Part shown: positions 35,749-53,790 of the stretch, piece after piece
How positions within the stretch are numbered: the stretch's first letter is position 1
Layout of the letters: every line of letters starts with the position of its first letter
DNA from: Bacillota bacterium
GTDB taxonomy: Bacteria > Bacillota > Sulfobacillia > Sulfobacillales > JAIMBI01
Direction of reading: 5' to 3'
Length of the DNA: 64,000 nucleotides
NCBI GenBank assembly: GCA_021846505.1
Contig: JAJZWV010000001.1
Coordinates: 37,291 to 101,290, forward strand
The notes under the pieces: model-generated
What the model was told of the DNA's origin: nothing
The model's input: only the letters and a program-made list of their open reading frames with translations
Database searches by the model: none
Translations under genes and position numbers: made by a program

Positions 35749-38700
35749 ATTTCCGCGGCCGTGAGGCCGCGGCTGCATTGAAGCGGCCTGGCCGCCCAGA
35801 TACGCCAAGGCGGCGCCGCCGACATTTCCGCGGCCGTGAGGCCGCGGCTGCATTGAAGCGTGCACTACGTGGCGCCGGGCGGACCCGAGAGCGAGCAATT
35901 TCCGCGGCCGTGAGGCCGCGGCTGCATTGAAGCTGCCCCCAAACTTCAACACGAAGTCCTCCAGGAACGTATTTCCGCGGCCGTGAGGCCGCGGCTGCAT
36001 TGAAGCATCGCGGCGGCGGCGGCCGGCGTCCCTGGGGAGATATTTCCGCGGCCGTGAGGCCGCGGCTGCATTGAAGCATGCAGTACTGCACCGGCGTGGG
36101 CGCGCGCACGTACCATTTCCGCGGCCGTGAGGCCGCGGCTGCATTGAAGCGGTAACTACGCGCGAATGCTTGTACGTGCCTACTGGATTTCCGCGGCCGT
36201 GAGGCCGCGGCTGCATTGAAGCGGTAACTACGCGCGAATGCTTGTACGTGCCTACTGGATTTCCGCGGCCGTGAGGCCGCGGCTGCATTGAAGCTCGCTC
36301 AGCGGCCGGCGCAGGGCGCGTTGCGCACTCCCATTTCCGCGGCCGTGAGGCCGCGGCTGCATTGAAGCCGCGTCCAGGCGCCGATGCCCGTGGGCGGCAA
36401 GCCATTTCCGCGGCCGTGAGGCCGCGGCTGCATTGAAGCGCCGATCCGCCGTCGGGTCTACCGCGGTTTCCGCACGATTTCCGCGGCCGTGAGGCCGCGG
36501 CTGCATTGAAGCAGCATGCTGACCCAGTTCTGCCACGTGGTGTTGACGTTATTTCCGCGGCCGTGAGGCCGCGGCTGCATTGAAGCCAACTATGCGCCGC
36601 AGGTGATCGAGAGCGTCAGCGGCATTTCCGCGGCCGTGAGGCCGCGGCTGCATTGAAGCGGAGAAGACACCGCTTTGGGCGGTGGCGTCGGACCAATTTC
36701 CGCGGCCGTGAGGCCGCGGCTGCATTGAAGCAACTTGCCGAGCCGCACCATCGCTTCGGCCCCCGTGCCATTTCCGCGGCCGTGAGGCCGCGGCTGCATT
36801 GAAGCATCTGACCCATGGTGAAAAAGGGCAGCCACATGCCCGCGATTTCCGCGGCCGTGAGGCCGCGGCTGCATTGAAGCATCCTAAGATCGCGGGGCGG
36901 GACACACTAAAACCCGCTCCATTTCCGCGGCCGTGAGGCCGCGGCTGCATTGAAGCATGTCACAAGACTTGGCAGAATGGGCCGCCACAAAATTTCCGCG
37001 GCCGTGAGGCCGCGGCTGCATTGAAGCTGTCCGCACGCGCTACGGCCGCGAAGCCGCGGATTTATTTCCGCGGCCGTGAGGCCGCGGCTGCATTGAAGCT
37101 TGGAGCCCGGCGCAGCTCGTAGTATGCTTTCACCATTTCCGCGGCCGTGAGGCCGCGGCTGCATTGAAGCATTGTTTGTGCGGACTCCATGTACTCGAAG
37201 ACGTGACATTTCCGCGGCCGTGAGGCCGCGGCTGCATTGAAGCCGACTTGCGCGGGAAGGCGGCCAAGTATGGCGGTTCCTATTTCCGCGGCCGTGAGGC
37301 CGCGGCTGCATTGAAGCCTTGGGATCTTCTCCGACGCTGCTATCGCTGATGCCAATTTCCGCGGCCGTGAGGCCGCGGCTGCATTGAAGCCACTGCCCGC
37401 ACACCTTGCCGTCGCCGATCGGGGGCAATTTCCGCGGCCGTGAGGCCGCGGCTGCATTGAAGCAACGGCGTGGGCGCGCTGGCGCTCGGGCCTCGATACC
37501 TGATTTCCGCGGCCGTGAGGCCGCGGCTGCATTGAAGCCTTTCGAGTGTGCCCCGCCTTGCACGCGGGCAAGGCGATTTCCGCGGCCGTGAGGCCGCGGC
37601 TGCATTGAAGCCACGTAGTCATGCGTCCAGGGGCGCCCCCCACGGTGGCGGATTTCCGCGGCCGTGAGGCCGCGGCTGCATTGAAGCGTAAGCGGCCACG
37701 GATCCGAGTCCGAGCTTCTGGCTATTTCCGCGGCCGTGAGGCCGCGGCTGCATTGAAGCAATAACCTATGGAGGCCCCACCGTAATAGGTAAACGACTGA
37801 GATTTCCGCGGCCGTGAGGCCGCGGCTGCATTGAAGCGCTGGGGAGCCACCGGGGGAGCCGGTGCAGGTCGCTATTTCCGCGGCCGTGAGGCCGCGGCTG
37901 CATTGAAGCTGTCGCGGAGGTGTCGAAGTATGTCACCAAGCCGGGTCATTTCCGCGGCCGTGAGGCCGCGGCTGCATTGAAGCTACGTGGCCGTGGAGTA
38001 GCCGCTGCCGAGCGTGAGCTATTTCCGCGGCCGTGAGGCCGCGGCTGCATTGAAGCCCTGCGCGGCCAAGCCACGCTGTCAGGCTCCGACTTGCATTTCC
38101 GCGGCCGTGAGGCCGCGGCTGCATTGAAGCTTGTACACCCCGCCCGAAAAGGCGCGGATAAAGACGGGATTTCCGCGGCCGTGAGGCCGCGGCTGCATTG
38201 AAGCTCGTTTTGGGCCGCGGCCCCCACATTCGCGATATCGTATTTCCGCGGCCGTGAGGCCGCGGCTGCATTGAAGCGTCCGAGCGGCGCAGCGTCACCC
38301 GGGGCCCTTGGGATTTCCGCGGCCGTGAGGCCGCGGCTGCATTGAAGCTGAAAGCCCCGCCACGCGCCGGCCAGGGCATCCCGCCATTTCCGCGGCCGTG
38401 AGGCCGCGGCTGCATTGAAGCACCACCCAATCGGCCACGGGCGGCCCGTATTGGTCCGCATTTCCGCGGCCGTGAGGCCGCGGCTGCATTGAAGCTAGAT
38501 CCGCTTGGCGGCCTGGCGCTTCGGAGCGGGAGATTTCCGCGGCCGTGAGGCCGCGGCTGCATTGAAGCGATCCCGAACTTGTCGGCCTGCGCGGCGTCGA
38601 AGAACATTTCCGCGGCCGTGAGGCCGCGGCTGCATTGAAGCCCAGTCGCTCATCCACAGGCCGCCGCGCTCCGACAATATTTCCGCGGCCGTGAGGCCGC

Positions 38701-41700
38701 GGCTGCATTGAAGCTTGGTCTGACTTCCGCGAAGAGTACCCAGAAGAGGCATTTCCGCGGCCGTGAGGCCGCGGCTGCATTGAAGCGTGGGCGCCGACGG
38801 CACACTGAACGTCACCGCCCCATTTCCGCGGCCGTGAGGCCGCGGCTGCATTGAAGCTTCCCCGGCCGATCCAATCCACCCCAGCCCGCGCCACTCATTT
38901 CCGCGGCCGTGAGGCCGCGGCTGCATTGAAGCGCGCCACTGCCGTAAGGTTGGTACCTGTGGGTTCTGATTTCCGCGGCCGTGAGGCCGCGGCTGCATTG
39001 AAGCCGGAATGCCCGTGCTCACAGCATCGCCGCCCCGGCGAGATTTCCGCGGCCGTGAGGCCGCGGCTGCATTGAAGCTTGGCGATTATCCATCAGGACG
39101 TGACGGCGCGGCTGGAATTTCCGCGGCCGTGAGGCCGCGGCTGCATTGAAGCCCAGCAAGTCAAGATAGTCGCGCTCGCTGTCGGTAATTTCCGCGGCCG
39201 TGAGGCCGCGGCTGCATTGAAGCCCGGCCAGCGGCTCCGTGACGATGATGAGCCGGAGCAGCGATTTCCGCGGCCGTGAGGCCGCGGCTGCATTGAAGCA
39301 GTCGGACATATAATCATAGTACCCGGCCGCTGTGTCATTTCCGCGGCCGTGAGGCCGCGGCTGCATTGAAGCTGGCTGGTGCTGGCCGGCCGAAAGAAGG
39401 CGCGCCGATTTCCGCGGCCGTGAGGCCGCGGCTGCATTGAAGCACCTCTGCCGCGGCCGCCCCATAATGGAGGTGGCCCCATTTCCGCGGCCGTGAGGCC
39501 GCGGCTGCATTGAAGCGGGTCGATGACGCCCGCGGCGTCGCGAAGGGCGCGAAATTTCCGCGGCCGTGAGGCCGCGGTTGCATTGAAGCCGTAAGCCTGC
39601 CGCTCCGCGCCCACATTTTATGTCATTTCCGCGGCCGTGAGGCCGCGGCTGCATTGAAGCGCGTGAACAAGCAACTCTCGATTCCGATGATGATTTTCAT
39701 TTCCGCGGCCGTGAGGCCGCGGCTGCATTGAAGCGACATAGCACCGGATCACACACGACTCGGTTGTCGTGCCATTTCCGCGGCCGTGAGGCCGCGGCTG
39801 CATTGAAGCATGCTGGCCAGATACTGCGTGCCGCGCTGGATGTTGTCGGATTTCCGCGGCCGTGAGGCCGCGGCTGCATTGAAGCGAGATCGCGATCCCG
39901 AAGCGCCGCGCGGCGCGGCGAAATTTCCGCGGCCGTGAGGCCGCGGCTGCATTGAAGCTCACGTCCTTTCGTAAATCGCGCTCATGGCGGCGCCATTTCC
40001 GCGGCCGTGAGGCCGCGGCTGCATTGAAGCGTAGTGGACCGCCGCGGCCCGCAGGGCGTCCGGGTCGTATTTCCGCGGCCGTGAGGCCGCGGCTGCATTG
40101 AAGCCACGAATGAGGACGCGGACCACGAAGAGCCCGAGGTCATTTCCGCGGCCGTGAGGCCGCGGCTGCATTGAAGCTGCCAGCACAGGACTTCCCAGCC
40201 TGCGCCGGGAATGAATTTCCGCGGCCGTGAGGCCGCGGCTGCATTGAAGCCATCGACTAGCAGCCCGCCAGGCCCCGCGCCACGCGATTTCCGCGGCCGT
40301 GAGGCCGCGGCTGCATTGAAGCGTGGCGCCGAGACCGCCCAACAGGATCTCGTCTCTGGTCACATTTCCGCGGCCGTGAGGCCGCGGCTGCATTGAAGCG
40401 CGGAGGCGATCGATGTCGCGCAGCTGGGATCGTCATTTCCGCGGCCGTGAGGCCGCGGCTGCGTTGAAGCTTCCATCGCTTTGAGCGGTTTCTTGGCATT
40501 CCCGTGGATATTTCCGCGGCCGTGAGGCCGCGGCTGCATTGAAGCCAGGCTACTCCGGGTCGCAGTATGCTGGGCTCAGGTTATTTCCGCGGCCGTGAGG
40601 CCGCGGCTGCATTGAAGCGAGGCCGTATCGGCGGCCTCCCTGACCGCAGATGCGGCTCATTTCCGCGGCCGTGAGGCCGCGGCTACATTGAAGCATATGC
40701 CGTGGTGCGCGTGGGCGCCGCGAGCAGCACCATTTCCGCGGCCGTGAGGCCGCGGCTGCATTGAAGCCCTGACCGCAGGTGCGGCTCGAGGCCGTATCGG
40801 CGATTTCCGCGGCCGTGAGGCCGCGGCTGCATTGAAGCGGATGCCTTCTCCGATGAAGAGTGCCAAGACTGCCCTACCATTTCCGCGGCCGTGAGGCCGC
40901 GGCTGCATTGAAGCAAACTCTCGCCCAGCGTGCCGACGCTCTTTTGGAGATTTCCGCGGCCGTGAGGCCGCGGCTGCATTGAAGCGATTTGCGCCACAGC
41001 GGGTTTCACTTCGCCAGCGAATTTCCGCGGCCGTGAGGCCGCGGCTGCATTGAAGCTCGAAGGCCCACGTGCGCCGCTGCAACAGCATTACCATTTCCGC
41101 GGCCGTGAGGCCGCGGCTGCATTGAAGCTTGTCAGGCGCTCGTACCCGACGGCCGCCAGCACATATTTCCGCGGCCGTGAGGCCGCGGCTGCATTGAAGC
41201 ATGGCGCTCCTTGGCACGCTGCGCGTCAAGCTCGGATTTCCGCGGCCGTGAGGCCGCGGCTGCATTGAAGCGTGGCGAGCAGCAGTGCGCAGGGGTTCAT
41301 GCTCACCAAATTTCCGCGGCCGTGAGGCCGCGGCTGCATTGAAGCAGAGCGCCATCCAGGCAGCGGAGAAGGTGGGCTACCCCATTTCCGCGGCCGTGAG
41401 GCCGCGGCTGCATTGAAGCATGGCGCTCCTTGGCACGCTGCGCGTCAAGCTCGGATTTCCGCGGCCGTGAGGCCGCGGCTGCATTGAAGCATTGGTCACC
41501 GTGGCCGCGATGTACGGATTCTGTTCATTTCCGCGGCCGTGAGGCCGCGGCTGCATTGAAGCAGGTCCACGCGTGAATGGCGCGCCCACCTAAGTTGAAT
41601 TTCCGCGGCCGTGAGGCCGCGGCTGCATTGAAGCCCAGGTGGCCGCCGTCCAGCCCGTAAAGTCCACCGTACTGATTTCCGCGGCCGTGAGGCCGCGGCT

Positions 41701-44700
41701 GCATTGAAGCCCAACCCCACGTATATCTATCGCCTGACCGTCAGCGCATTTCCGCGGCCGTGAGGCCGCGGCTGCATTGAAGCAGTATCGCGCCGATTAC
41801 CCAGAGGAAGTCGAAGGATAATTTCCGCGGCCGTGAGGCCGCGGCTGCAATGAAGCCCCAGGTTGATGTCGCCGGTTTTGCCGCCGAATTTGAGCACATT
41901 TCCGCGGCCGTGAGGCCGCGGCTGCATTGAAGCTGCATCGCGCGGACTACGAGCCGCTAGCGCCGGAATTTCCGCGGCCGTGAGGCCGCGGCTGCATTGA
42001 AGCGTATGATCTGCTTCGTGGTCTGCACAACCCACGCTAGATTTCCGCGGCCGTGAGGCCGCGGCTGCATTGAAGCCGGGTGGCGCGGGTGCGGGCCTGG
42101 CGACCGATGAGGTATTTCCGCGGCCGTGAGGCCGCGGCTGCATTGAAGCCAACATACGACTTACCACTACCCCAACCACCCACCATATTTCCGCGGCCGT
42201 GAGGCCGCGGCTGCATTGAAGCCTCATGCGCCACCCGCTCCACCTGCACACCCATCATATTTCCGCGGCCGTGAGGCCGCGGCTGCATTGAAGCACCACC
42301 GGGGGCTATCACATCGACGTGATGTCCCACATTTCCGCGGCCGTGAGGCCGCGGCTGCATTGAAGCTTGGCGGTCGTCCCGCTCGCGGCCGCCGCCCCGC
42401 TCGCCATTTCCGCGGCCGTGAGGCCGCGGCTGCATTGAAGCGGCGGATGGGGAAGACGCGGCGCGGCTGTACGAGGATTTCCGCGGCCGTGAGGCCGCGG
42501 CTGCATTGAAGCGCTGGCCGCGCAGCGCGTGCCCATCGGCGTCTACGCGATTTCCGCGGCCGTGAGGCCGCGGCTGCATTGAAGCTGCTGATCGTCGGTG
42601 CGCTGCACGCTCTTGCGGAGCGATTTCCGCGGCCGTGAGGCCGCGGCTGCACTGAAGCGGGCCGTTCCAGTCCGTGGCTGCGGCTCGCATATCCGCATTT
42701 CCGCGGCCGTGAGGCCGCGGCTGCATTGAAGCTGAATGCCGGCAGCTACACGTGGAACGAGTTCTAATTTCCGCGGCCGTGAGGCCGCGGCTGCATTGAA
42801 GCACTTGCAGTTGGCCGACGCCGAGGCCGAAGTTGTCGGTGTATTTCCGCGGCCGTGAGGCCGCGGCTGCATTGAAGCGGCGGGTGGTCGGTGCGTGTGG
42901 GCGTCCGGGGGGCGTATTTCCGCGGCCGTGAGGCCGCGGCTGCATTGAAGCAGCGAGCGCGGGAGACTCCGCGAAAGCCTCTGCCGGATTTCCGCGGCCG
43001 TGAGGCCGCGGCTGCATTGAAGCAAGGAGCCCCCGGTGACGCGCCCCACCTACGCCGCCGATTTCCGCGGCCGTGAGGCCGCGGCTGCATTGAAGCCGCA
43101 TGGGCGGGCACCCGGAGCACGGTGGGGACGCATTTCCGCGGCCGTGAGGCCGCGGCTGCATTGAAGCCCGGGCGGCCCGGCTCGCTGTTCCAAGACGCGC
43201 AACTCGATTTCCGCGGCCGTGAGGCCGCGGCTGCATTGAAGCATGAAGGAGGGTCGGCAACGGGCTTCGCCCCGTGGCTTATTTCCGCGGCCGTGAGGCC
43301 GCGGCTGCATTGAAGCGCAGGTGCTGTACCTGTGGGGCATCGACCCCATGGCGAATTTCCGCGGCCGTGAGGCCGCGGCTGCATTGAAGCCAACACGGCG
43401 TCATGGTCATTGGGCGGAAAGGGGTTGGCGATTTCCGCGGCCGTGAGGCCGCGGCTGCATTGAAGCATCATCGCCACCACCGGCGCCGGCAGCGCGTCAA
43501 TCTATTTCCGCGGCCGTGAGGCCGCGGCTGCATTGAAGCTTTTTCCGCACGTATGAAGTTTGCGGAAAAGAAGAAATTTCCGCGGCCGTGAGGCCGCGGC
43601 TGCATTGAAGCTTCTTGTCGCGGCGCGGCATGGATGGTCATATTGCCATATTTCCGCGGCCGTGGGGCCGCGGCTGCATTGAAGCCGCGTGTTTCCCCGC
43701 GATCGGGCGCGCACCTGGGAATTTCCGCGGCCGTGAGGCCGCGGCTGCATTGAAGCTCGCATCACCCCGCCCCGGGCACCGAGCCTGCGTGGCTATTTCC
43801 GCGGCCGTGAGGCCGCGGCTGCATTGAAGCTGGCGGGAAGTACGAGCTAGCGACAGCCGCCCCTCCATTTCCGCGGCCGTGAGGCCGCGGCTGCATTGAA
43901 GCGGATTCGCGAGGCATGCTTTGGATCCGCGTCGACCCATTTCCGCGGCCGTGAGGCCGCGGCTGCATTGAAGCACCGTCAGGCCGTTCACCACGTTCGA
44001 ATGCGCCAAGTAATTTCCGCGGCCGTGAGGCCGCGGCTGCATTGAAGCATGATGATGCGCCGGTGCTTGGCTACACGTACGACACGTATTTCCGCGGCCG
44101 TGAGGCCGCGGCTGCATTGAAGCGGGCGAGCGGGCCATGAGCAGGACGATGACCAGCAATACCAATTTCCGCGGCCGTGAGGCCGCGGCTGCATTGAAGC
44201 GCTGGCTATCTTCCGCGACTCTGCCATTGCTGACGCTAATTTCCGCGGCCGTGAGGCCGCGGCTGCATTGAAGTCGTCCGGGTAGCATGGCGAAGACGAA
44301 CGAGTCTCAGATTTCCGCGGCCGTGAGGCCGCGGCTGCATTGAAGCTTGTATACACATGGCGGACAAGCGATAGGTAGTGCTATTTCCGCGGCCGTGAGG
44401 CCGCGGCTGCATTGAAGCTGAGAGGGCAGTCTCCCGAAATGCGGTGATGTTGTATTCCCGCGGCCGTGAGGCCGCGGCTGCATTGAAGCGATCACGGCGC
44501 CATCCTGCCGCATGTGCCGGTTTTGATTTCCGCGGCCGTGAGGCCGCGGCTGCATTGAAGCAGCTCCTTGGCGGTGGCTCCCTCTGGCGCCACCAGGGAT
44601 TTCCGCGGCCGTGAGGCCGCGGCTGCATTGAAGCGGGTAAACGCCTGCGACGTGCCCCAGCCGCTTTCGAGGATTTCCGCGGCCGTGAGGCCGCGGCTGC

Positions 44701-45432
44701 ATTGAAGCGCGATGGGTGACGTGTCCGAATGGGCACCAGTATTACGCCATTTCCGCGGCCGTGAGGCCGCGGCTGCATTGAAGCTAGAAGCGGCGAACGG
44801 GGATCGGCCATGTGTTCATGATTTCCGCGGCCGTGAGGCCGCGGCTGCATTGAAGCCAAGCTGTTGGCTACACCGCTGACGCGGACGTCTTCTGATTTCC
44901 GCGGCCGTGAGGCCGCGGCTGCATTGAAGCGAGTCAGCATACAGGCACCCGGACCCGGGTGCAATATTTCCGCGGCCGTGAGGCCGCGGCTGCATTGAAG
45001 CATAGCCATCCGCGGTGACATCGGTCTCCGGCACGAGATATTTCCGCGGCCGTGAGGCCGCGGCTGCATTGAAGCACCGCCCGGCGCGCCTGCAACTCAT
45101 GCGCCACCCGCATTTCCGCGGCCGTGAGGCCGCGGCTGCATTGAAGCGGCAAGGCGCAGAAGACGGGAGAGCTGGACGCCATATTTCCGCGGCCGTGAGG
45201 CCGCGGCTGCATTGAAGCGGACCAACAAGCATCACGCGAGGGCGGCCTGCGGCATCATTTCCGCGGCCGTGAGGCCGCGGCTGCATTGAAGCGGGGCTGG
45301 TACGCCGGCGACCTGGGAGTGACCCCGGCCGGCCATTTCCGCGGCCGTGAGGCCGCGGCTGCATTGAAGCTTGTGGCCCTTGGGCCGGCGGTTGCGCACG
45401 CGATCAATTTCCGCGGCCGTGAGGCCGCGGCT
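35749..45432 (+). CRISPR. CRISPR array: 132 full 36-nt repeats plus a 26-nt truncated terminal repeat, 132 spacers of 35-40 nt
   Basis: Repeat ATTTCCGCGGCCGTGAGGCCGCGGCTGCATTGAAGC, with an 8-bp stem CCGCGGCC/GGCCGCGG and loop GTGA. Counted by hand line by line (uncertainty about +/-2). Plus-strand polarity is inferred from three things: hairpin followed by the ATTGAAGC 8-nt tag, cas2 and leader on the left, and all variant repeats in the right-hand 60%. Confidence 0.97.
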
Positions 45433-45716
45433 TTACTATGCCGTGATCCTGATGGACGGCGACCGTGTCGGCGACTTGCTCTCCAAAGTGGGCGCCGCCA
45501 CGGTGGCTCGTGCCCTTGAGGCATTTTCTGCCGAGGTGCCTAACGTGGCGGCAGCCACCGATGCTGTGCTGGTTTACGCCGGGGGCGATGACATCTTGTG
45601 TCTCGCACCGCTCGACACGGCACTGGAAGCGGCGCAGAAGTTCCAGGAGGCGTATGCGCACGCGTGGGAGGCGGCAGCCCCCGGGGTGGCGGCCACCATG
45701 TCGGCGGCCCCCGCGC
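45433..45716 (+). pseudogene. cas10: cas10/cmr2 Palm (cyclase) domain fragment abutting the truncated repeat
   Basis: Directly after repeat position 26 the frame reads YYAVILMDGDRVGDLLSK..ALEAFSAEV..AVLVYAGGDDILCLAPLDTALEAAQKFQ... This is the Cas10/Cmr2 pattern (DGDxxG ... YAGGDD). No N-terminal Cas10 domains are present. Confidence 0.6.
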
Positions 45717-45721
45717 ACCCT

Positions 45722-45862
45722 GTCGGTAGATGCCCAATGCCAAGCTGTCGCGCCCGGCTGCGTCTTTGGCCACGCCATCCAACAGGGCATGGGCGTCCAC
45801 CAACACCGCGGTGAGCGGCGTGCTGTACTGTGCATACAAGACGAGCGCCAGGGTTTTTTCGC
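45722..45862 (-). pseudogene. cas10: second cas10/cmr2-like fragment on the opposite strand
   Basis: The minus strand reads ..KTLALVLYAQYSTPLTAVLVDAHALLDGVAKDAAGRDSLALGIYRQGA. This resembles the Cas10 segment that normally follows GGDD (TxSxG..H.k.PL...L..A..LL..AK..GRd.la). Weaker call. Confidence 0.4.
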
Positions 45863-45959
45863 TCGACGGGGTCCCCAGCAATCCTACAACATAGGCAATA
45901 CGTGGGCAACACATGCACTCCAAATGCCTCCGTCCTGGACCTTGCGAGCGCGGGAACCT

Positions 45960-46215
45960 GGCGCAAAGCCGTAGCCACCGCCGCGGGGGCGTGGACGGCG
46001 CGCCCCCGCGCCGCCGAATACTGGGCCCGTGAACACACGGGGACCCTGCGGGGGCACTCGTACCGGCTTGTCGTCTACCGCACCTCGAGCCTCGACCAGC
46101 GGAACGCGCACCATTTCGACCGGGAGCTGACGCGGGTCCGCGCCACGGCCGATCTGGCCGGCCAGGCGTTCACGTGTGCCGCGGATGCGGAGGCCGCCAG
46201 CCGGGCCACCCTGCG
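45960..46215 (+). mobile_element. IS4/IS1634-family-like transposase fragment
   Basis: ..GHSYRLVVYRTSSLDQRNAHHFDRELTRVRATADLAGQAFTCAADAEAAS.. resembles the conserved central block of IS1634-type transposases. No start, no DDE region, no ends. Confidence 0.4.
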
Positions 46216-46299
46216 GGGGTCACCGGCTCCAGCGTCACGCGATAGCCCAGCGCCTTCAGGCGGTGCGGGACCCGCCGGACGACCGCGGCCCACGCAGAC

Positions 46300-46465
46300 C
46301 ACCACCAGGCTGACGGTGTGGGCGGAATGGGAGCAAGGCAAGTACCCCACGGGGATCAAAATCACGGCGAAGGACATCACGGCCCTCCATCTCGTGGCGG
46401 ATCCCTTTCAAGGCCAATGGAATTACACGATTTCTCCCCAAGATGACTCAGTTAAAAAAGGGTGA
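46300..46465 (+). mobile_element. ISAzo13-family-like transposase C-terminal fragment
   Basis: ..LTVWAEWEQGKYPTGIKITAKDITALHLVADPFQGQWNYTISP.. matches the extreme C-terminus of ISAzo13-type transposases (..YP.GikvS..em..l.l....FHGeWNYTI.P). Only about 50 aa are present. Confidence 0.45.
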
Positions 46466-46511
46466 GCCCTGACGAGGATCCGGGAGATCGGAGGCACCGC
46501 GCAACGACAGG

Positions 46512-47495
46512 CTACCCGCCTCTAAGTTGAGAAGCCACCTCGTCATGCTCCTCTACACCGGAGGACACAGTGGCCGGTACGGGCGGGGTGAACACCACGA
46601 ACTTCCCCGCGGTGCGCCGGGTGGAGCGAAACAGCTCCCGCACGCCCCGCGCTTGCAGCTGCGCCACATTGCGCTCGCCAACTTCACCTGCCAGCTCTGC
46701 CGCCGCCATGCCCATCAAGGACCGCACCGCATCGGCAGACAGCGGGGCCTCCCAGATGGGCCATGTAAAGTGCGTCTCGCGCTTCACCCGGCGAAATCCC
46801 GTGGTGGCGATGCCTCGCCCCACCGGGGCCGTGGGCAGGAGGCGCAGAGCCTCCACAGCCAGTCGGTTAGCGCCCCGCACCGTGCGACCGGGATCATTCG
46901 AGGGATTTTTCCACCGGAGGGCATAGCGGCGGTCGTCGCGCGCATCCCAACGCATGCTGGGCAACTCATCAGTGTACGCCCACGGCTCAAACAGGGCATG
47001 CTCCAAATCCCGCGCCGTGGTCAGCTCGGCCAGCTTGCGCATTGACTCCAAAAAGTGCTGATTTCCCGCACCGCTCATGGTGCGAAAGCTGGTGTCGCGA
47101 AGCAGGCCCTTCTTGTCCACGACGACGTCACACCCAAAGGCCGCCAGAAAATCGGCGTGGGAGCGCTCTGAAAGGGTGGCGGCCCTGGCCGCCTGCAGAG
47201 CCTGGTAGCGAAATTGCTCCCCCGACACCGCAAGATCCTTCGCGAATCGCACCGCCGGGTTCTCGGCCAGCGACTTCAAGCGCTCGGCCAGCCATTCGGG
47301 CAGACTATTGCGCTCCACCCCATCCGGCAACCCAGCTATGAACGCTGTCCACTGCCCACCCACACGGAGCCACCCCAGCCGCGGTGCATCATCGCGGGAA
47401 GGGTCGGACAGCGCCACCAGCGTCCCCAGGGCGGCGAGGAAGCCCGGCATCGACTCTCCGTGCAAACCTTCTAGTACTAATGGGTGCTGCCTCAT
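46512..47495 (-). CDS. type I-G large-subunit candidate (Cas8u/Cas8g-like; Csb3/Csx17-related)
   Basis: The start MRQHPLVLEGLHGESMPGFLAALGTLVAL overlaps the cas3 stop (ATGA). The position (last gene of the effector operon) and the N-terminal xLxGxxxxxxxxFLAALG pattern resemble Cas8u-type proteins. At 327 aa it is shorter than Csx17. Confidence 0.5.
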   Translation of the reverse strand: MRQHPLVLEGLHGESMPGFLAALGTLVALSDPSRDDAPRLGWLRVGGQWTAFIAGLPDGVERNSLPEWLAERLKSLAENPAVRFAKDLAVSGEQFRYQALQAARAATLSERSHADFLAAFGCDVVVDKKGLLRDTSFRTMSGAGNQHFLESMRKLAELTTARDLEHALFEPWAYTDELPSMRWDARDDRRYALRWKNPSNDPGRTVRGANRLAVEALRLLPTAPVGRGIATTGFRRVKRETHFTWPIWEAPLSADAVRSLMGMAAAELAGEVGERNVAQLQARGVRELFRSTRRTAGKFVVFTPPVPATVSSGVEEHDEVASQLRGG

Positions 47496-50400
47496 GCCCC
47501 CCGCCCCCTTTTTCCACGGGTGGATCCTGCCTGCTCTTCTTCGCTCTGCCGATGGTCCGCCAGCCGCAAGATGGCCTCCAGCCACGGCAACCCCCACCAC
47601 CCATAGCGGCGCGCCAGCCGCCAGAACCGCTCTTCCACCCCAGATCCCAGCTGCTCCAGCCCCGTTGCCGACGACACCGTGACCGCCGCACCCGCCAGTG
47701 GCACCAACACCTCTACCGGCTCCGTGTCCTCCACCACTGGGGCAAAGGGACGACCTCGCCCGTGATGGGTCGCCACCAGATATAAAACCAAGTCTTTCAG
47801 CTCACGGGTATCTGGCATCTCCTCGGGGCCTGCCGATTCCAGCATCCTCACCGAGAGCAACTCGTGTCGGCCCCCCCGCGGGTACCCCGACTGCTTAAGC
47901 GCTTCGCGATACGCTTTAGGGGAGAGAGGAGTCCCACGGGACTTAGCGACCAACTCCGGCCATGACCAGCGGCCCCCGCCGGTCAGCACATTTTGAAAAC
48001 GAGGGTCCGCCTTGCCCAAATCATGCAGGCCGCCGGCAGCCGCCACCGCCTCCACCATCGGCTCCGGCAGGCCACACTGCTCAGCGTACTTGCGCGCTCG
48101 ACGTGCCACCCCGTCCAGGTGCTGCCCCAGGGTTACGACCCGGCTGCCAGACGTGGACGTGTAGTCTTCGTCGGTAAAGGTATCAAGTGACGCAAAGGGC
48201 GTAGGAGCTTCCACTCGATGCCTGCCTCGCACGATGAGGCCGACCCCCAGCGGGTGTGGGTCGATGCACTGCTCCAAGTTCTCTCGCAAGAGGGCAACCG
48301 AGAGGTCGCGCAGCCACTTGGGGGCAATTTCGTCTTGGGAAACCGCTTGCAGCGCATCTCGCACGTCGCCTACCAGTCCGTCAGGGTCATCCTCAAACGA
48401 CCGCCCGCCGGTTTCTGCCAGCGTCAGCAGCGCGGCGCGGCTTGGGGTGGGGGGCAGTTGGCCCACCACTGCGGGATGGAGTCGCATGACCGGCAGGCCT
48501 CGCGTCTCAAAATTTGCGCGGTCTCCCCAGTCTAGGCAAGGCGGGCCCGCGCGCCGTGCCAAGTCGCCCAGCACGGTGGACCGCTTAGACTCGTTTGCCG
48601 CAGCGTTGAGAACCAGCACGTCCCCAGGGCGCAGCCTCCCACCATCTTGGATGGCCTGAGCATCATCCCGGCCTCTCCACCGAATCACTGACAAGCTAGA
48701 TTCTTCGCTCTCGCGGCGGCCGCGGGCAGCGTGGCGCTTGGCGGCGGAGTCCTCTAATTCATCCGGTGCCACACTTTCCAGATCACCGCTGTCATCCTCC
48801 ATATTGGCACCCGACAAAAAGTCCCGCATGACATGGATGGGAACTGGCAGGCACTCTGCGATAGCGGGTGGCGCCCACGCCAGCGCGTCCAGCGTGGCCG
48901 GCACAATCTTGCCCGCCTCATCCCGCTCAAAGTCCGCCCGCCAGCACACCAGCACGTCAGGCGACCCCGCTTCAGGTCCGTGGAGAAACACCGCAGGATC
49001 TGGGGAAGGCCACGGGATAGGGTCGGTCTGGGCCCATAAGTCGATGTGCGCTGGCAGCATCACGGGCGCGTGGCGCACCGGCGCGAACAGCTCCGCTGCA
49101 TTTTCGGTTTCGGACAGCTGCTCCGCCAAGCCCCCGACGCTCATGTCCACCGTTTGGTCGGGTCGCTCGTGGGCGCGAAGCCACTGCCAGGTGCGCGCGA
49201 GTGCCGTCCCATAAATCGGGTCGCCCGCGGGGTCATCCAGTTTGAGGTCTCGCTCCAGCACCACGATGGCTTGGCTGGCAATGGGTCGCCCCATCCGATT
49301 GAGTCGCCCGAAGCGCTGCTGCAGTGCGTCCAGCGACGCGCACTCGGTCACGAGGTAGTCAAAGTCCAGATCCGCCCCCACTTCCAGGGTTTGGGTCGCC
49401 ACCACAAACAGCGGCGCCTTCCGCGCGCCGTCCCGCGCGCCACTAGCCACCGAGGCAAGATCGCGATCCACGACATCGCCCTTGTCGACGGGGCGCATGC
49501 GTCCTGTCAGCAGGACCGTGTCTAGGTGAGCCTTCTGCAGCAATGCCGCCACCTCGCGCGCCGTCTGCACCCGGTTGCAAAACACCACGGTGGATATCGG
49601 GCCGTCAGCGCCCAGATGGCTCAGTTGGCGCGCGGAGGCTGCGAGCTCCTCGGCTACTCCCAGTCGCCCCGCGGAGCGGGCCACAGCTAACGTGGCCGGC
49701 TTCGCGGCCCAGCGCCGTCGTCCCAGAGGATGCTCCCGGTCGTCGCCTTGGCCAGAGGTATCCCGAAAGACGTCCTGGAATCCCGCCGGCGGCGTCGCGG
49801 ACATCACCACCGCATGAAACGGTGGGGGCAGCGGCTCCTTGGCAAACGTCCGATACCGCCCGACGGCGCGCAACGTTTCCATAAACGGCACGGCGCAATG
49901 GGCTTCATCCAGCAGCACCAGGCTGTCATTGGCGACCAGCCCCGCATAAATGGGAAAGCTGTAGGGCCGCCGCCCATAGGCCCGAAACAGGAGGCGGGAG
50001 CCCAGCTGGTCTACGGTGGTCGCTACCACGGTAGGCTGCACGGGGGACCGGGCCCAAGCCTCCGAGCGGTAAATCCCCCCGCGGAGCTCGTACGCCATGA
50101 GGGGCACTTCTCCACCCAAGGCCATCAGGCGCTCGGCCACTTGCCGCAGAGTCGGATCGCCGCCGTCCAGCGCTTCGTAAAGCTTTTGGGCGATTTTCTG
50201 AGCACGGCTGTACGCCGCGTCGACGATGAGTCGCCGGTCGACCGCGAAAAACACGCGGCGCGGCATGCGGCCCCGCTCGGGGTGCATCGCCAGCGCAAAC
50301 ACGGCCACATCCAAGCAGGCCGTCTTGCCCGCCGCGGTAGGCAGGGCCAACACTTCCGGCCACGGGTCGGCAGACGTCATCACCCGCGCGGCCAGCGAAC

Positions 50401-50497
50401 GCTGCCATTCGAATGCTGGATACCCCCACAGCGCGTGGAAGAACCGATCGAACTGCTCTCCGGCACTCCCTGCGCTGCTCTCCCAATCCCTATCCAT
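47492..50497 (-). CDS. cas3: type I-G Cas3 helicase-nuclease (C-terminal HD domain)
   Basis: 1001 aa. Helicase motifs ..LALPTAAGKTAC.. and ..LVLLDEAHCAVPF.. (DEAH). C-terminal HD nuclease ..GGLHDLGKADPRFQ...LVATHHGRGRP. HD at the C-terminus is the I-G arrangement. Confidence 0.9.
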   Translation of the reverse strand: MDRDWESSAGSAGEQFDRFFHALWGYPAFEWQRSLAARVMTSADPWPEVLALPTAAGKTACLDVAVFALAMHPERGRMPRRVFFAVDRRLIVDAAYSRAQKIAQKLYEALDGGDPTLRQVAERLMALGGEVPLMAYELRGGIYRSEAWARSPVQPTVVATTVDQLGSRLLFRAYGRRPYSFPIYAGLVANDSLVLLDEAHCAVPFMETLRAVGRYRTFAKEPLPPPFHAVVMSATPPAGFQDVFRDTSGQGDDREHPLGRRRWAAKPATLAVARSAGRLGVAEELAASARQLSHLGADGPISTVVFCNRVQTAREVAALLQKAHLDTVLLTGRMRPVDKGDVVDRDLASVASGARDGARKAPLFVVATQTLEVGADLDFDYLVTECASLDALQQRFGRLNRMGRPIASQAIVVLERDLKLDDPAGDPIYGTALARTWQWLRAHERPDQTVDMSVGGLAEQLSETENAAELFAPVRHAPVMLPAHIDLWAQTDPIPWPSPDPAVFLHGPEAGSPDVLVCWRADFERDEAGKIVPATLDALAWAPPAIAECLPVPIHVMRDFLSGANMEDDSGDLESVAPDELEDSAAKRHAARGRRESEESSLSVIRWRGRDDAQAIQDGGRLRPGDVLVLNAAANESKRSTVLGDLARRAGPPCLDWGDRANFETRGLPVMRLHPAVVGQLPPTPSRAALLTLAETGGRSFEDDPDGLVGDVRDALQAVSQDEIAPKWLRDLSVALLRENLEQCIDPHPLGVGLIVRGRHRVEAPTPFASLDTFTDEDYTSTSGSRVVTLGQHLDGVARRARKYAEQCGLPEPMVEAVAAAGGLHDLGKADPRFQNVLTGGGRWSWPELVAKSRGTPLSPKAYREALKQSGYPRGGRHELLSVRMLESAGPEEMPDTRELKDLVLYLVATHHGRGRPFAPVVEDTEPVEVLVPLAGAAVTVSSATGLEQLGSGVEERFWRLARRYGWWGLPWLEAILRLADHRQSEEEQAGSTRGKRGRGA

Positions 50498-50518
50498 GGC
50501 TTGTCCCTCGCTTCATGC

Positions 50519-52057
50519 TCATTGGGGACGGCACAGACCGTAGCCGCGATACCGGCCCGCTCCCAAAATCATCGGTCCGGCCACCGTCTCGGGAAATTCC
50601 AGGCGGGCATGCAGGTGCAGCCGTGCGGTGCCATCCGGGCGCCGAAGGGGGGGAAATTCCTCCGCGCGCGGCGCCCCCTGGGCAAATGGCGCCCGCGACA
50701 GCTCCACGGCTTTCGGCCGCGGCAACCCGATGTGCTCGCAAGCCTTCGCGGCCGCCTCGGTCAGCACGCTCCAGCGGTTTCGCCCGTGGGCGTGGCGATC
50801 CATCACGATGGGCGTCACCGAGACCCACGTGGAGCTCGGCCGAATCCACGTTTGCGGTGCCAGCGTCATGGGGAGCACTTCGCGCTCGTCCAGCTGGGCT
50901 GTGGATTCGAACCAATCCCGGTGAGCCAGCAGCAGTTGCCGCGGCGCGCCAAGCTCGTCGCGAAGCCATCCCTGCAGGAAGGTGGCGGCCGCGCGGCCGT
51001 CGACCCCCCTCGGCAGGGCCAGTCCGACGCCCATGAGGCGCCCATCACCGTGGGCGTGCCCCACGTTCACCAGCGGCACCAGCGATACGTGTGGAGCGCG
51101 AGACGGTCCGCCATCCGGGGTGAGCCCAGAGGCCCACTCCGGCGCATCGGGGTGCGCGGCCATCATGGAGTGGCGCAGCGCCTCCACCACCGCCAGCGTC
51201 ATCGTGGCCGGCAGGTTTCCCGTGAGCCGCAGCACCTGCACGCGGGGATCAAATTCTCCCCGCACTTCGACCTCGGAGGAGGTCCGCGGCCCCGGCCGCC
51301 GATACCCCTGCCAGCGGCTGTTGCGAGGCCGCAAGCGGTCCACCAGCCCATCTAGGTATCGGGCGCGGTCCAATTTCCCCAAAGTCATGGCATGCCGCAC
51401 ATGGGGAGCGGGATCGGAAGCGGCCAGATACGAAAGGCGTCCGTCATACGGCACCCGCATCCGCAGGGTGGCATCCAGCCCATCATCCGGCACCCACAGG
51501 TGCCGCCGGGGCCCCAGCACCGGTGCGTCCGCATCGACCCACATCTGGACGAGCGACGCGGAGTGGCCAACGTGCGTAACTTTGCGGCACAGGCTGGCCA
51601 ACCCAGCGTGCAGGCTGGGAGGCAGCGCCCCAGTCTCTTCCCACACTAGGTGCACCACCGGATCCTCCGGCACCGCGACCGGGAAGCTGCGTGCCTGCCG
51701 CTTGCGGTGGGCGGGCAGGACCGTCAGTCCTTGGTCCAGCAACTTTTGAGGACTGGTGGTGTCCTTAAGCTGACCCACCTTTACGTCGTTCACGGGGACA
51801 AACGACACCGGGGGCCCGTCGCCTCCCACAGCGACCCTCGGGTGGCTGGCAGACGCATAGACCAATGGCGCCGGCTGGCGCTCCAGCCAGCGCAGGGCCT
51901 CGGCCTCCTCGTCCGGACCCGCCGTCTCGAAGTACGCGGCCGCCAGGGCCATGAACACGCGATCAGGATGGGGCGGCCACTCGGCCCGCGACTTGGCGGC
52001 ACCGTCCGCCGCCGCCAGCGACCAGCCGTTTAGGTATTCAACGGCCAAGCTGATCAT
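50519..52057 (-). CDS. csb2: type I-G Csb2 (Cas5/Cas6-fusion family), paralog 2
   Basis: MISLAVEYLNGWSLAAADGAAKSRAEWPPHPDRVFMALAAAY has the same N-terminal architecture as the gene at 32184 but is clearly diverged. 512 aa, following csb1. Confidence 0.85.
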   Translation of the reverse strand: MISLAVEYLNGWSLAAADGAAKSRAEWPPHPDRVFMALAAAYFETAGPDEEAEALRWLERQPAPLVYASASHPRVAVGGDGPPVSFVPVNDVKVGQLKDTTSPQKLLDQGLTVLPAHRKRQARSFPVAVPEDPVVHLVWEETGALPPSLHAGLASLCRKVTHVGHSASLVQMWVDADAPVLGPRRHLWVPDDGLDATLRMRVPYDGRLSYLAASDPAPHVRHAMTLGKLDRARYLDGLVDRLRPRNSRWQGYRRPGPRTSSEVEVRGEFDPRVQVLRLTGNLPATMTLAVVEALRHSMMAAHPDAPEWASGLTPDGGPSRAPHVSLVPLVNVGHAHGDGRLMGVGLALPRGVDGRAAATFLQGWLRDELGAPRQLLLAHRDWFESTAQLDEREVLPMTLAPQTWIRPSSTWVSVTPIVMDRHAHGRNRWSVLTEAAAKACEHIGLPRPKAVELSRAPFAQGAPRAEEFPPLRRPDGTARLHLHARLEFPETVAGPMILGAGRYRGYGLCRPQ

Positions 52058-53313: not shown

Positions 53314-53383
53314 GATTCACCCTCTTCTCTGCGCGGTCTGCCGCTGATTGGTGCTGATGCCATGATTCAGAGCGTTCGCTGCC

Positions 53384-53412
53384 ATCCTAGCATTTCACTG
53401 GTGGGTTTGCCA
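53384..53412 (-). promoter_or_regulatory. candidate promoter P2 for csb1-csb2-cas3-cas8
   Basis: The minus strand reads TGGCAA, 17 nt, TGC-TAGGAT (extended -10), about 70 nt upstream of the csb1 ATG. Confidence 0.4.
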
Positions 53413-53434
53413 GGATGTGCATTAGACCTAAAGA

Positions 53435-53455
53435 GGGGCCCCGGGGGCGGGCCCC
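53435..53455 (-). terminator. GC hairpin closing the crRNA-like unit (degenerate 3' repeat surrogate or terminator)
   Basis: The minus strand reads AATT GGGGCCC GCCCCCG GGGCCCC TCTTT: a 7-bp G/C stem, 7-nt loop and short T-rich tail. It starts about 40 nt after the half-repeat, where the next repeat hairpin would be expected. Only about 35% identical to the true repeat. Confidence 0.4.
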
Positions 53456-53461
53456 CAATTC

Positions 53462-53513
53462 GACAAGGGAGACTTTCGTCCTCCTGACGCGCATCTAGCT
53501 TCAATGCAGCCGC
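53462..53513 (-). ncRNA. crRNA-like element: orphan 3' half-repeat (16 nt) plus spacer-like sequence
   Basis: Minus strand 53513-53498 is GCGGCTGCATTGAAGC, a perfect copy of repeat positions 21-36 including the 8-nt tag. It is followed by TAGATGCGCGTCAGGAGGACGAAAGTCTCCCTTGTC. No expression data. Confidence 0.5.
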
Positions 53514-53566
53514 CTGCTACAGCTAGCCCAGCGGGCGACCGGCAAATAGTCGCCCGCCGGAACCAG

Positions 53567-53749
53567 CTACAGGGGCGGTAAGAAGGGTCGCTTGATGGGC
53601 CAGGAGGATGACGCATGGACAGAAAACTCTAACTGAGTCAACGTTTGCGACTGCCGGGACGCGAACACAACGCGGCCGCCCGCCGCAACCATACGTACCT
53701 CGCTGCTGGCCTTCTGTTCGAAAATCACCACCCGAACCTCGTCGACCAT
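53567..53749 (-). CDS. hypothetical 60-aa ORF behind promoter P1 (possibly a cas10 5' remnant)
   Basis: ATG preceded by AGGAG at 10 nt. MVDEVRVVIFEQKASSEVRMVAAGGRVVFASRQ... GC3 about 73%. No family recognised. See findings for the in-frame relation to the cas10 fragment. Confidence 0.3.
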   Translation of the reverse strand: MVDEVRVVIFEQKASSEVRMVAAGGRVVFASRQSQTLTQLEFSVHASSSWPIKRPFLPPL

Positions 53750-53757
53750 ACCACGAT

Positions 53758-53776
53758 TTCTCCTGACTCGTATCTA
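53758..53776 (-). promoter_or_regulatory. partial protospacer for the crRNA-like element (candidate Cascade operator)
   Basis: Minus strand TAGATACGAGTCAGGAGAA versus spacer-like TAGATGCGCGTCAGGAGGA gives 16/19 identity. Mismatches are at positions 6, 9 and 18. 5' flank is CTA. It covers about +8 to +26 of the P1 transcript, including the SD. Confidence 0.45.
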
Positions 53777-53790
53777 TAGGAACCAGGATT

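Follow-up and report, generated by a model that had tools for sequence, protein, structure and literature searches.

The window analysed here, a 64-kb stretch of DNA, carries a type I-G CRISPR-Cas system in which a Csb2-like gene (X), cas4/cas1, cas2, the leader and the array are followed by a convergent csb1-csb2-cas3g-cas3-extension operon and, beyond it, by an SNF2-like gene. The array comprises 132 full 36-nt repeats (35749-45370) and 132 spacers, and ends in a further copy of the repeat that is cut after position 26; the 10 nt directly 3' of the cut are Cas10 coding sequence and not a degenerate repeat tail. Between this point and the 3' end of the I-G operon lies an interval of 1.08 kb, which holds two pieces of a cas10/cmr2 gene, A and B, and fragments of two IS transposases (Table 1). 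Piece A is on the strand of the array, whereas piece B is on the opposite strand, that of the I-G operon. Comparison of the spacers with the rest of the window gave only chance matches of at most 16 nt and no true self-targeting spacer.

Table 1. Features at the array end and upstream of csb1, in window positions.
Feature	Position	Strand	Remarks
Leader-distal terminal CRISPR repeat	45407..45432	+	cut after position 26 of 36; hairpin at positions 5-24 intact
Cas10/Cmr2 relic, piece A	45434..45706	+	Palm2, from the first beta-strand (YYAVILMDGD) through GGDD to ..ATMSA
Cas10/Cmr2 relic, piece B	45707..45845	-	LVLYAQYSTPL...GRDSLALGIYRQGARG; Cmr2 profile states 446-490
IS debris between the Cas10 relic and the cas3-extension stop	45850..46511	+	two transposase fragments
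IS1634-like transposase, internal fragment	about 45971-46198	+	NF033559 positions 250-318 of 483, E 5e-4
ISAzo13 transposase, C-terminal end	about 46292-46438	+	positions 339-387 of 387, E 7e-9
Pseudo-repeat upstream of csb1	53498..53513	-	repeat positions 21-36 (GCGGCTGCATTGAAGC); not part of the relic
Near-perfect hairpin, 68 nt	53508..53575	-	read as "20 sense codons" in the preliminary description; not part of the relic
60-aa ORF behind P1	53567..53749	-	no family match, no Cmr2 similarity; not part of the relic

Piece A, read on the plus strand from 45434 (YYAVILMDGDRVG...VYAGGDDILCLAP...ATMSA), runs in a frame without stop, has its GGDD motif at 45581-45592 and corresponds to the first 96 residues of the Cas10/Cmr2 Palm2 (cyclase) domain. 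It matched Pfam PF22335 (Cas10-Cmr2_palm2) over positions 1-98 of 133 (E 1.6e-19, 70.8 bits) and TIGR02577 (Cmr2) over positions 359-483 of 510 (E 9.7e-18). Piece B, read on the minus strand (..LVLYAQYSTPL..LLDGVAKDAAGRDSLALGIYRQGAR), supplies the 46 residues that follow those of piece A and matched PF22335 over positions 99-133 (E 0.009). In a Cmr2 profile of our own, built from 40 full-length relatives and comprising 633 states, piece A occupied states about 350-445 (E 4e-37) and piece B states about 445-490 (E 4e-15), the two being contiguous at states 445/446. Joining A and B artificially raised the TIGR02577 score from the 64.3 bits of piece A alone to 74.1 bits and extended the match to position 505 of 510, the full-protein cut-off of 79.4 bits being reached by neither. 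The join was crossed without a break in single alignments to real Cmr2 proteins and to the Pyrococcus furiosus Cmr2 structures, which match the fragment at E about 1e-16, and the GGDEF family (PF00990) matched neither piece at E<=1. These results bear out the preliminary description in two respects: what follows repeat position 26 is a Cas10/Cmr2 Palm2 domain with GGDD, as judged by PF22335 and TIGR02577, and not a GGDEF or polymerase domain, and a second Cas10 segment does lie on the opposite strand, contiguous with the first in the family profile. A "PPTWW" stretch behind piece B was also considered as a continuation of Cas10 and was rejected, since it reads antisense to the ATMSA end of piece A, which is itself well matched.

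An exhaustive protein search returned 2,696 relatives; among the 150 listed, the full-length ones are mostly Cmr2 proteins of about 580-730 aa, aligned in one stretch (query about 20-155). The best full-length match, P0002, is 53% identical to the fragment and other Cmr2 proteins are 47-50% identical, and all columns that are invariant in the family alignment within this stretch (DGD..G, Y.GGDD, Y, S, L, K and GR) are retained. A word-indexed search with the joined fragment returned only the same sequence and no close homologue, and neither type of search found an intact, near-identical Cas10 in the databases. In total, 141 of about 630 codons survive (about 22% of the gene), representing the Palm2/cyclase core in two abutting pieces on opposite strands.

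The rest of the gene is missing from the window. The approximately 350 residues that precede Palm2 (Cmr2_N/Palm1) were detected neither by tblastn with eight full-length Cmr2 proteins (E<=10) nor by running the 633-state profile over all six-frame segments with filters off, and the C-terminal helical domain (states 491-633) is likewise missing from the window, the similarity reaching no further than state 490, which coincides with the right-hand edge of piece B. Two weak tblastn results, matches to the Cmr2 C-terminus on the minus strand at 46191-46411 (E about 7) and a single match on the plus strand at 46286-46345 (E 1.1), were dismissed as chance; both overlap the ISAzo13 fragment, where the profile search is blank. 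The Cmr proteins of two related loci (L009 and L017) and the CARF/RAMP proteins of a third (L006) gave nothing significant in the window by tblastn, and no Cas10, cmr or CARF remnant was found within the IS debris. Across all 64 kb, nothing of Cas10, cmr1, cmr3-6 or CARF was detected beyond the two Cas10 pieces, and the earlier statement that the window has no other type III gene holds by both tblastn and profile searches. The fragment derives from the Cas10/Cmr2 family and is not a working member of it.

No active protein would be expected from the fragment, which has lost Palm1 and the C-terminal domain together with every partner subunit, and whose plus-strand frame leaves piece A for the antisense sequence of piece B. 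If it is expressed at all, this would probably be just as a passive 3' tail on transcripts that read through from the array. It might nevertheless be argued that the plus-strand ORF (147 aa from a TTG at 45371, or 120 aa from an ATG at 45452), expressed by such read-through, is a working Palm-only mini-cyclase similar to mCpol. Its frame is open and retains every invariant residue of Palm2, along with the DGD and GGDD motifs that bind metal; it follows immediately on the last repeat, on the same strand as the array; several assemblies have it as a predicted gene; and there is a weak match to mCpol itself (PF18182, E 8.9e-5). That match, however, reaches only 23.3 bits, below the cut-off of 26.4 bits and far below the score of PF22335 on the same residues. 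Furthermore, (i) the ORF lacks the final third of the domain, which is encoded on the opposite strand, and closes instead with 36 antisense-derived residues, (ii) the nearest relatives, among the matches listed, are all full-length Cmr2 proteins that are collinear through the inverted piece, (iii) no Shine-Dalgarno sequence is visible before either start, (iv) the window holds no CARF or other signal-receiving effector, and (v) the relatives have no homologous short gene, the short homologues being the same sequence from the same species, and all available copies are identical. We consider a working mini-cyclase very improbable, and we give still less credence to the more specific idea that the Palm2-only ORF (45371/45452-45814), as a pre-crRNA tail, would be translated into a small, self-associating, mCpol-like cyclase that still makes a nucleotide signal; if that were true, an mCpol-like enzyme would have been born from the wreck of a Cas10 gene.

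The arrangement at the array end is not an artefact, because its junctions are identical across independent assemblies. They agree base for base in the five loci that were compared directly (L001-L005; 100% over 45300-46520), the same repeat-Cas10 fusion protein is encoded in L011 (SRR13222494), and L012 (ERZ27237466) is collinear throughout the region at 99.98% identity. A variant arrangement in L004 and L012, to which their differing gene tables pointed, was rejected, as the DNA of both is collinear with the window and the gene calls alone differ. No strain in a state intermediate between an intact module and the relic was found.

Relatives of the locus were found via the Cas3-extension protein and then via the CARF protein of L006, and a contig scan with Cas3g confirmed none. 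Two of them, L015 and L017, match the window in the order and orientation of genes over the whole backbone from the Csb2-like gene to the SNF2-like gene, with the array convergent with the I-G operon, and belong to the same repeat family. In both, the interval between the array end and the I-G operon measures about 8 kb and holds a CARF gene and a complete cmr1-cas10-cmr3-cmr4-cmr5-cmr6 set. The last repeat of either array is degenerate but of full length and directly abuts the stop codon of cmr6; in L017 about 4 repeats occupy the space from cmr6 to cas2, and the contig of L015 is broken within the array. L015 and L017 carry the intact type III-B module with this repeat family that the preliminary description had proposed to seek in relatives. 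Between L017 and the window, identities amount to 67% for the SNF2-like protein, 78% for Csb1, 67% for Csb2, 69% each for Cas3g and the Cas3-extension, 92% for Cas2, 86% for Cas4/Cas1 and 61% for the Csb2-like protein X. In contrast, the L017 CARF, Cmr1 and Cmr3-6 proteins match nothing in the window, and its Cas10 matches at the two pieces only. A type III-B module also adjoins I-G genes in the more distant locus L009. Taken together, the identity of the pieces, the lack of any other type III sequence and the synteny with the relatives point to A and B being, in all probability, a non-functional relic of the cas10/cmr2 gene of a type III-B module that once lay between the array end and the 3' end of the I-G operon.

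The lost module was not an orthologue of that found in the relatives, since the identity of the fragment to the Cas10 of L015 and L017 is no more than 39-40%, as against 61-92% for the neighbouring I-G and adaptation proteins; judging from these sequences, its orientation, or even its position, may have differed from theirs. We propose that IS activity removed the module in situ, in several illegitimate joins. One of these would have joined position 26 of the terminal repeat to the cas10 codon with which Palm2 begins; a further one would have set A and B head to head at an inverted 4-nt microhomology, which flanks piece B (GGCG at 45703-45706, CGCC at 45846-45849); and at least two more would lie inside the IS debris. 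The Cas10 similarity extends precisely from the repeat junction to the right-hand edge of piece B. With edges that coincide with the junctions in this way, simple reciprocal inversions and deletions fit only with an additional coincidence: every path of this kind from the ancestral layout to the succession of repeat positions 1-26, piece A, inverted piece B and debris needs one extra coincident breakpoint.

Similarity edges that fall exactly on junctions, together with a patchwork of short unrelated fragments (IS1634-like, ISAzo13) and microhomology joins, would also suit a different origin, in which the Cas10 pieces were imported with the IS fragments from another locus or from foreign DNA, perhaps as filler or cargo when the array end was rearranged by IS elements or by end joining. 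The different Cmr2 lineage of the fragment, closer to P0002 than to the syntenic Cas10 of L015 and L017, would also speak for such an import, but exchange of a whole type III module at a fixed position explains the sequence distance equally well. Moreover, the pieces lie in precisely the interval where both relatives carry their III-B operon, III-B modules adjoin I-G genes as far away as L009, and none of the catalogued genomes of the window species contains a donor copy. Import therefore appears unlikely to us, and we favour the decay in place of a resident type III-B module.

The preliminary description had given the array end another history. In it, an inversion of 8.1 kb (45433-53508) broke the terminal repeat and separated a Cas10 or short cyclase gene, driven by the promoter-like sequence P1, from its beginning, the 60-aa ORF now found upstream of csb1, and a pseudo-spacer next to the pseudo-repeat there might once have regulated this gene. 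The two parts of the repeat are indeed complementary (positions 1-26 at the array end, positions 21-36 inverted at the pseudo-repeat, with a 6-nt overlap), the pseudo-spacer matches a site after P1 at 15 of 17 positions, and the frame count is arithmetically correct, the TAG at 53569-53567, the 60 nt (20 codons) and the first Tyr codon all being in one frame. Nevertheless, L015 and L017 are oriented like the window, carry a homologous pseudo-repeat in the corresponding position upstream of csb1 and have complete terminal repeats. This makes 53498-53513 an old, conserved element that did not arise as the counterpart of the break at 45432, and its conservation rules out the 8.1-kb inversion. The 6-nt overlap (GCGGCT), considered as proof of a reciprocal inversion, was rejected on the same comparative data.

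Nor does the continuity of the ORF with Cas10 withstand examination. The 60-nt bridge is part of a strong hairpin that is unique in the window (-45.9 kcal/mol, z -4.9, 0 of 200 shuffles), a stop codon stands between the ORF and the fragment, and the ORF is not conserved: it is absent from L015 and L017 and holds 2 of the 9 differences that separate 8.5 kb of the window from a 99.9% identical strain. With filters off and E values up to 100 admitted, the Cmr2 profile still matched nothing in bridge or ORF, and both profile and pairwise alignments start at the junction, whereas the relatives carry about 350 residues upstream of Palm2, for whose codons only about 310 nt would be available before the SNF2-like gene. 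On this point the preliminary description is refuted by the very test that it had set. The P1-driven type III or short cyclase gene did not come about, and there is hardly any likelihood left for the reconstruction as a whole. The same applies to the suggestion that a type I-G guide once regulated a type III gene, as the pseudo-spacer and its target are conserved and co-vary upstream of the I-G operon, a CreR pattern, in genomes whose intact III-B module is situated at the other end of that operon.

The element upstream of csb1 deserves attention in its own right. Its pseudo-repeat keeps the 5'-handle part of the crRNA and is followed by a 37-nt pseudo-spacer, AATT and a GC hairpin, an organization (53429-53513) that is conserved in three genomes. 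Over nucleotides 1-18, the pseudo-spacer mismatches its target at positions 6, 9 and 18 in the window, at 3, 6, 9, 12 and 18 in L017 and at 6, 12, 15 and 18 in L015, the mismatches being concentrated at every sixth position, and the pair co-varies in the three genomes, in each case upstream of the I-G effector operon. In the window, the target lies 14 nt after TTGACA-17-TAGAAC (P1), which is promoter-like on a consensus reading only; a strict sigma-70 scan of 53300-53950 did not list it, TAGAAC failing the position-6 rule of the scan. This organization suggests that 53429-53513 is a mini-CRISPR of the CreR type, through which the I-G system would regulate itself. The predicted 5' start of the putative processed CreR-like RNA is AUUGAAGC at 53505.

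Altogether, the relic is an ordinary pseudogene of a lost type III-B module beside a type I-G system. It matters little on its own: the lineage lost its III-B arm together with the CARF effector, and kept and greatly expanded its I-G array. For annotation it is a warning, since the "Cas10 Palm2" protein of 120-131 aa that gene callers produce should be marked as a pseudogene fragment. The comparison with relatives also corrects a tempting but wrong inversion reconstruction, and the half-repeat upstream of csb1 proves to be a conserved, co-varying, CreR-like element, which is the more interesting object in this neighbourhood.

Cas10/Cmr2, the large subunit of type III-B systems, is defined by TIGR02577 and by PF12469 (Cmr2_N) plus PF22335, with P. 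furiosus structures such as 3W2V, 3UNG and 4W8Y. The fragment shares with it the Palm2 core, including the upstream metal-binding Asp strand and the DGD and GGDD motifs, but represents only states about 350-490 of 633 and is without Cmr2_N/Palm1, the C-terminal domain and partner cmr genes, whereas P0002, the nearest full-length Cmr2, sits in a canonical cmr1-6 operon. Similar to mCpol (PF18182), the plus-strand ORF is short and consists essentially of one Palm domain with a GGDD-type motif; unlike mCpol, it arose by truncation, the remainder of its domain being encoded on the opposite strand, and it has neither an associated effector nor a conserved short homologue.

Use of type I crRNAs by a type III-B system has been shown for Marinomonas mediterranea (Silas et al. 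2017, PMC5576922). The composite I-G/III-B loci considered here (L015 and L017, and distantly L009) combine one adaptation module and one array, and the window retains their backbone in the same order and orientation but has lost CARF and cmr1-6, its surviving Cas10 piece belonging to another Cmr2 lineage.

As regards the CreR-like element, we take type I-U to be the older name of type I-G. Autorepression by CreR has been demonstrated for types I-B, I-E and V-A, and creA-like elements have been found by manual search for I-D, I-C, I-E, I-F and I-U (bioRxiv 10.1101/2023.03.10.532045). The candidate described here resembles these in that its pseudo-repeat keeps the 5' handle and its pseudo-spacer partly matches a site just downstream of the promoter-like sequence of an effector operon. 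It departs from them in that the downstream pseudo-repeat is merely a GC hairpin preceded by AATT and in that, in the window organism, the 60-aa ORF and the long hairpin separate the target from the pseudo-repeat.

The terminal repeat copy of the CRISPR array (45407-45432) is cut after position 26, and the bases that follow are coding sequence (YYAVILMDGDRVG...VLVYAGGDDILCLAP...ATMSA) and not a degenerate repeat tail. This sequence (piece A) and a second fragment on the opposite strand (piece B) match the Palm2 domain of Cas10/Cmr2 (Table). For piece A, the type III-A Csm1 model and mCpol scored far below Cas10-Cmr2_palm2 and TIGR02577, and a profile search found no GGDEF match at E<=1 for either piece. 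In our own Cmr2 profile, built from 40 full-length Cmr2 relatives (633 states), piece A occupies states ~350-445 and piece B states 445-490, without a gap, and the TIGR02577 score rose from 64.3 to 74.1 bits when the two were joined. An exhaustive search of 1.84 billion representatives returned 2,696 relatives of the joined fragment. Among the 150 listed, the full-length ones are mostly Cmr2 proteins of ~580-730 aa that align in one stretch across the A/B join, which is likewise crossed by the alignment with the P. furiosus Cmr2 structures. The nearest full-length protein among the matches listed (P0002, 53% identity) sits in a canonical cmr1-6 operon, and the fragment keeps all invariant residues. 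Thus, Pfam, TIGR02577, our own profile and the P. furiosus structures bear out the assignment to Cas10/Cmr2, and not to GGDEF, made in the preliminary description, as well as its proposal of a second, opposite-strand fragment. The feature is a pseudogene relic of this known family.

Table. Features of the type I-G CRISPR-Cas locus and of the Cas10/Cmr2 relic
Feature	Coordinates	Strand	Remarks
Csb2-like gene	32007-33596	+	
Cas4g/Cas1g	33597-35267	+	
Cas2	35267-35563	+	
Leader			185 nt, between cas2 and array
CRISPR array	35749-45370	+	132 full 36-nt repeats, read on plus strand
Piece A	45434-45706	+	Pfam Cas10-Cmr2_palm2 positions 1-98/133, E 1.6e-19; TIGR02577 Cmr2, E 9.7e-18
Piece B	45845-45707	-	Palm2 positions 99-133; Pfam weak, E 0.009; own Cmr2 profile strong, E 4e-15
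Cas3-extension gene	46512-47450/47600	-	
Cas3g	47492-50497	-	
Csb2	50519-52057	-	
Csb1	52057-53313	-	
CreR-like region	53429-53819	-	L015 ~2190-2520; L017 ~2030-2590
AATT + GC hairpin	53456-53435	-	
Pseudo-repeat	53498-53513	-	
Small ORF	53749-53567	-	
18-nt site	53776-53759	-	matched by pseudo-spacer; 14 nt after promoter-like sequence
Promoter-like sequence (P1)	53819-53791	-	TTGACA-17-TAGAAC, our own reading

No other type III gene was found in the window, as previously described: eight full-length Cmr2 proteins (tblastn, E<=10) and the 633-state profile, applied without HMMER filters to every one of the 1,808 stop-free segments of the six frames, recovered only pieces A and B, and the Cmr1, Cmr3-6 and CARF proteins of three related loci (tblastn) detected no type III sequence beyond them. 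Piece B is separated from the Cas3-extension gene by 660 nt with two transposase fragments, one internal and IS1634-like, the other a C-terminal end from ISAzo13. One open frame of 211 codons (45830-46465, +) spans both unrelated fragments (IS1634-like residues 48-123, ISAzo13 residues 155-203) and is called as a 187-aa 'ISAzo13 transposase' gene in some assemblies. IS activity around the CRISPR-Cas locus is further indicated by a full-length ISL3-family transposase gene (27277-28470, -; NF033550, E 9e-67) that lies ~3.5 kb upstream of it.

The window carries a type I-G locus. Its array is read on the plus strand, as shown by the ATTGAAGC end of the repeat and by the position of the leader next to cas2, so that 45432 is its old leader-distal end. 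With 132 spacers of 34-42 nt, this array (35749-45432) is very large; nearly all of its repeats are identical, and two of the spacer sequences are each present in two copies. Immediately upstream of cas4/cas1 lies a second Csb2-like gene, which is divergent (19820-21141 in the related contig L017); the copy in the window matches TIGR02165 (E 2.4e-32), with 24% identity to the operon's Csb2 and 61% to the L017 copy.

Relatives were reached from the Cas3-extension protein through a 70%-identical relative with CARF and RAMP genes next to it, and from there by a CARF search leading to two longer contigs, L015 and L017. In both, a divergent SNF2-like gene, a pseudo-repeat, csb1, csb2, cas3g and cas3-extension are followed by CARF, cmr1, cas10 (589 aa), cmr3, cmr4, cmr5 and cmr6, and then by a small, oppositely oriented array whose repeats belong to the same family, cas2, cas4/cas1 and a Csb2-like gene, all convergent. 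The intact type III-B module with this repeat family that was sought in relatives is therefore present in these two. Their terminal repeat is degenerate yet full-length and abuts the cmr6 stop codon; L017 has ~4 repeats between cas2 and cmr6, and the L015 contig breaks inside the array. Proteins of L017 have counterparts in the window, in unchanged order and orientation (SNF2-like 67%, Csb1 78%, Csb2 67%, Cas3g 69%, extension 69%, Cas2 92%, Cas4/Cas1 86%, Csb2-like 61%), so that array and I-G operon were ancestrally convergent. L017 CARF, Cmr1 and Cmr3-6 had no match in the window, and its Cas10 matched pieces A and B only; judging from this comparison, ~8 kb of CARF and type III-B genes have apparently given way to 1.08 kb of debris.

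The preliminary description had instead invoked an 8.1-kb inversion, with the pseudo-repeat upstream of csb1 as the other half of the broken terminal repeat. This is refuted by the relatives, which share the window's orientation and carry a homologous pseudo-repeat at the same site. In both, this pseudo-repeat precedes a pseudo-spacer that is also homologous, then a GC hairpin that is conserved, and the region of csb1 ribosome binding. The pseudo-repeat is therefore older than the lineage split and cannot be the reciprocal product of the 45432 break, and the 6-nt overlap between the two repeat parts is a coincidence.

Three joins delimit the relic: repeat position 26 to the first Palm2 codon, piece A to the far end of piece B, with inverted microhomology GGCG (45703-45706)/CGCC (45846-45849), and the near end of piece B to the debris; further joins must lie between the two IS fragments. 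Because the Cas10 similarity begins and ends exactly at joins, a chain of simple reciprocal inversions and deletions needs one extra coincidence, and a better fit would be multi-break rejoining, or else adjacent rearrangements mediated by IS elements with a subsequent deletion. The type III-B operon lies on the I-G strand in L015 and L017. If the lost module ran likewise, it is piece A that would have been flipped, with piece B still on its original strand, the reverse of what had been assumed; with the module on the array strand, a plain deletion would account for the join between the repeat and piece A. Since the fragment is only 39-40% identical to the Cas10 of L015/L017, versus 47-53% to other Cmr2 proteins, the lost module was of another lineage and its orientation is uncertain. 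That the invariant residues are intact suggests that the loss was fairly recent; the directly compared copies do not differ across the relic region. In a more distant locus (L009:769-14749; ENA ERZ25071132 ctg810673_18x_l), cmr1-cas10-cmr3-cmr4-cmr5-cmr6 lie directly upstream of a split Cas3g (658-aa helicase + 288-aa HD), followed by the Cas3-extension gene, Cas4/Cas1 and Cas2. There, type III-B effector genes take the place of the I-G Cascade genes, with no csb1 or csb2 in the part of the locus seen.

No function would be expected for the relic. Palm1 and the C-terminal domain are missing, as are all Cmr partners and any cyclic-oligoadenylate receptor. Neither possible start has a Shine-Dalgarno sequence before it, and the plus-strand frame exits Cas10 after ..ATMSA, its next 36 codons being antisense to piece B. 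A working Palm-only mini-cyclase is thus extremely improbable. Piece A follows the last repeat immediately and shares the strand of the array, so it is probably transcribed as a read-through tail, and the last spacer may still be processed because the truncated repeat retains its hairpin.

It had also been proposed that, with the inversion undone, a small ORF behind P1 continues in frame into the Cas10 fragment. The frame arithmetic is right, the ORF ending in TAG with 60 nt in frame to the first Tyr codon, but the ORF is not the 5' part of a Cas10 gene. Profile and pairwise alignments start at the junction residue and never reach the 20 codons or the ORF, and with the Cmr2 profile at E<=100 the ORF plus the 60-nt bridge yielded nothing above noise. 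The bridge forms a hairpin that is nearly perfect (-45.9 kcal/mol, z = -4.9; 0/200 shuffles fold as well), typical of an intergenic element and not of coding sequence. A real Cmr2 has ~350 residues before Palm2, while the room between the junction and the divergent SNF2 gene is only ~310 nt. Finally, the 60-aa ORF matched no family in profile searches and is absent from L015 and L017. A strain 99.9% identical to the window (L004) shows nine differences from it over 8.5 kb. Four of these fall in the ~150 nt covering the ORF and the P1/target region (53652-53797), and two of the four, at 53793 and 53797, lie shortly before the pseudo-spacer target.

On the minus strand, the promoter-like sequence, the 18-nt site and the small ORF are followed by the long hairpin, the GCGGCTGCATTGAAGC pseudo-repeat, a 37-nt pseudo-spacer, AATT with the GC hairpin, and csb1. 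The first 18 nt of the pseudo-spacer mismatch the upstream site at positions 6, 9 and 18 in the window, 3, 6, 9, 12 and 18 in L017, and 6, 12, 15 and 18 in L015, that is, mostly at every sixth position (mainly 6, 12, 18), which Cascade complexes leave unpaired. Pseudo-spacer and target differ among the three genomes yet co-vary. From these sequence features, pseudo-spacer and P1 are most likely parts of a loop by which the I-G (presumably the former I-U) effector operon regulates itself, without any link to type III, contrary to the suggestion that a I-G guide once regulated a type III component. Elements of this kind were noted for I-U among other subtypes, only by manual sequence inspection, in the CreR preprint (10.1101/2023.03.10.532045), and the pseudo-repeat, pseudo-spacer and promoter-site region shares the architecture of these CreR-type Cas-regulating mini-CRISPRs.
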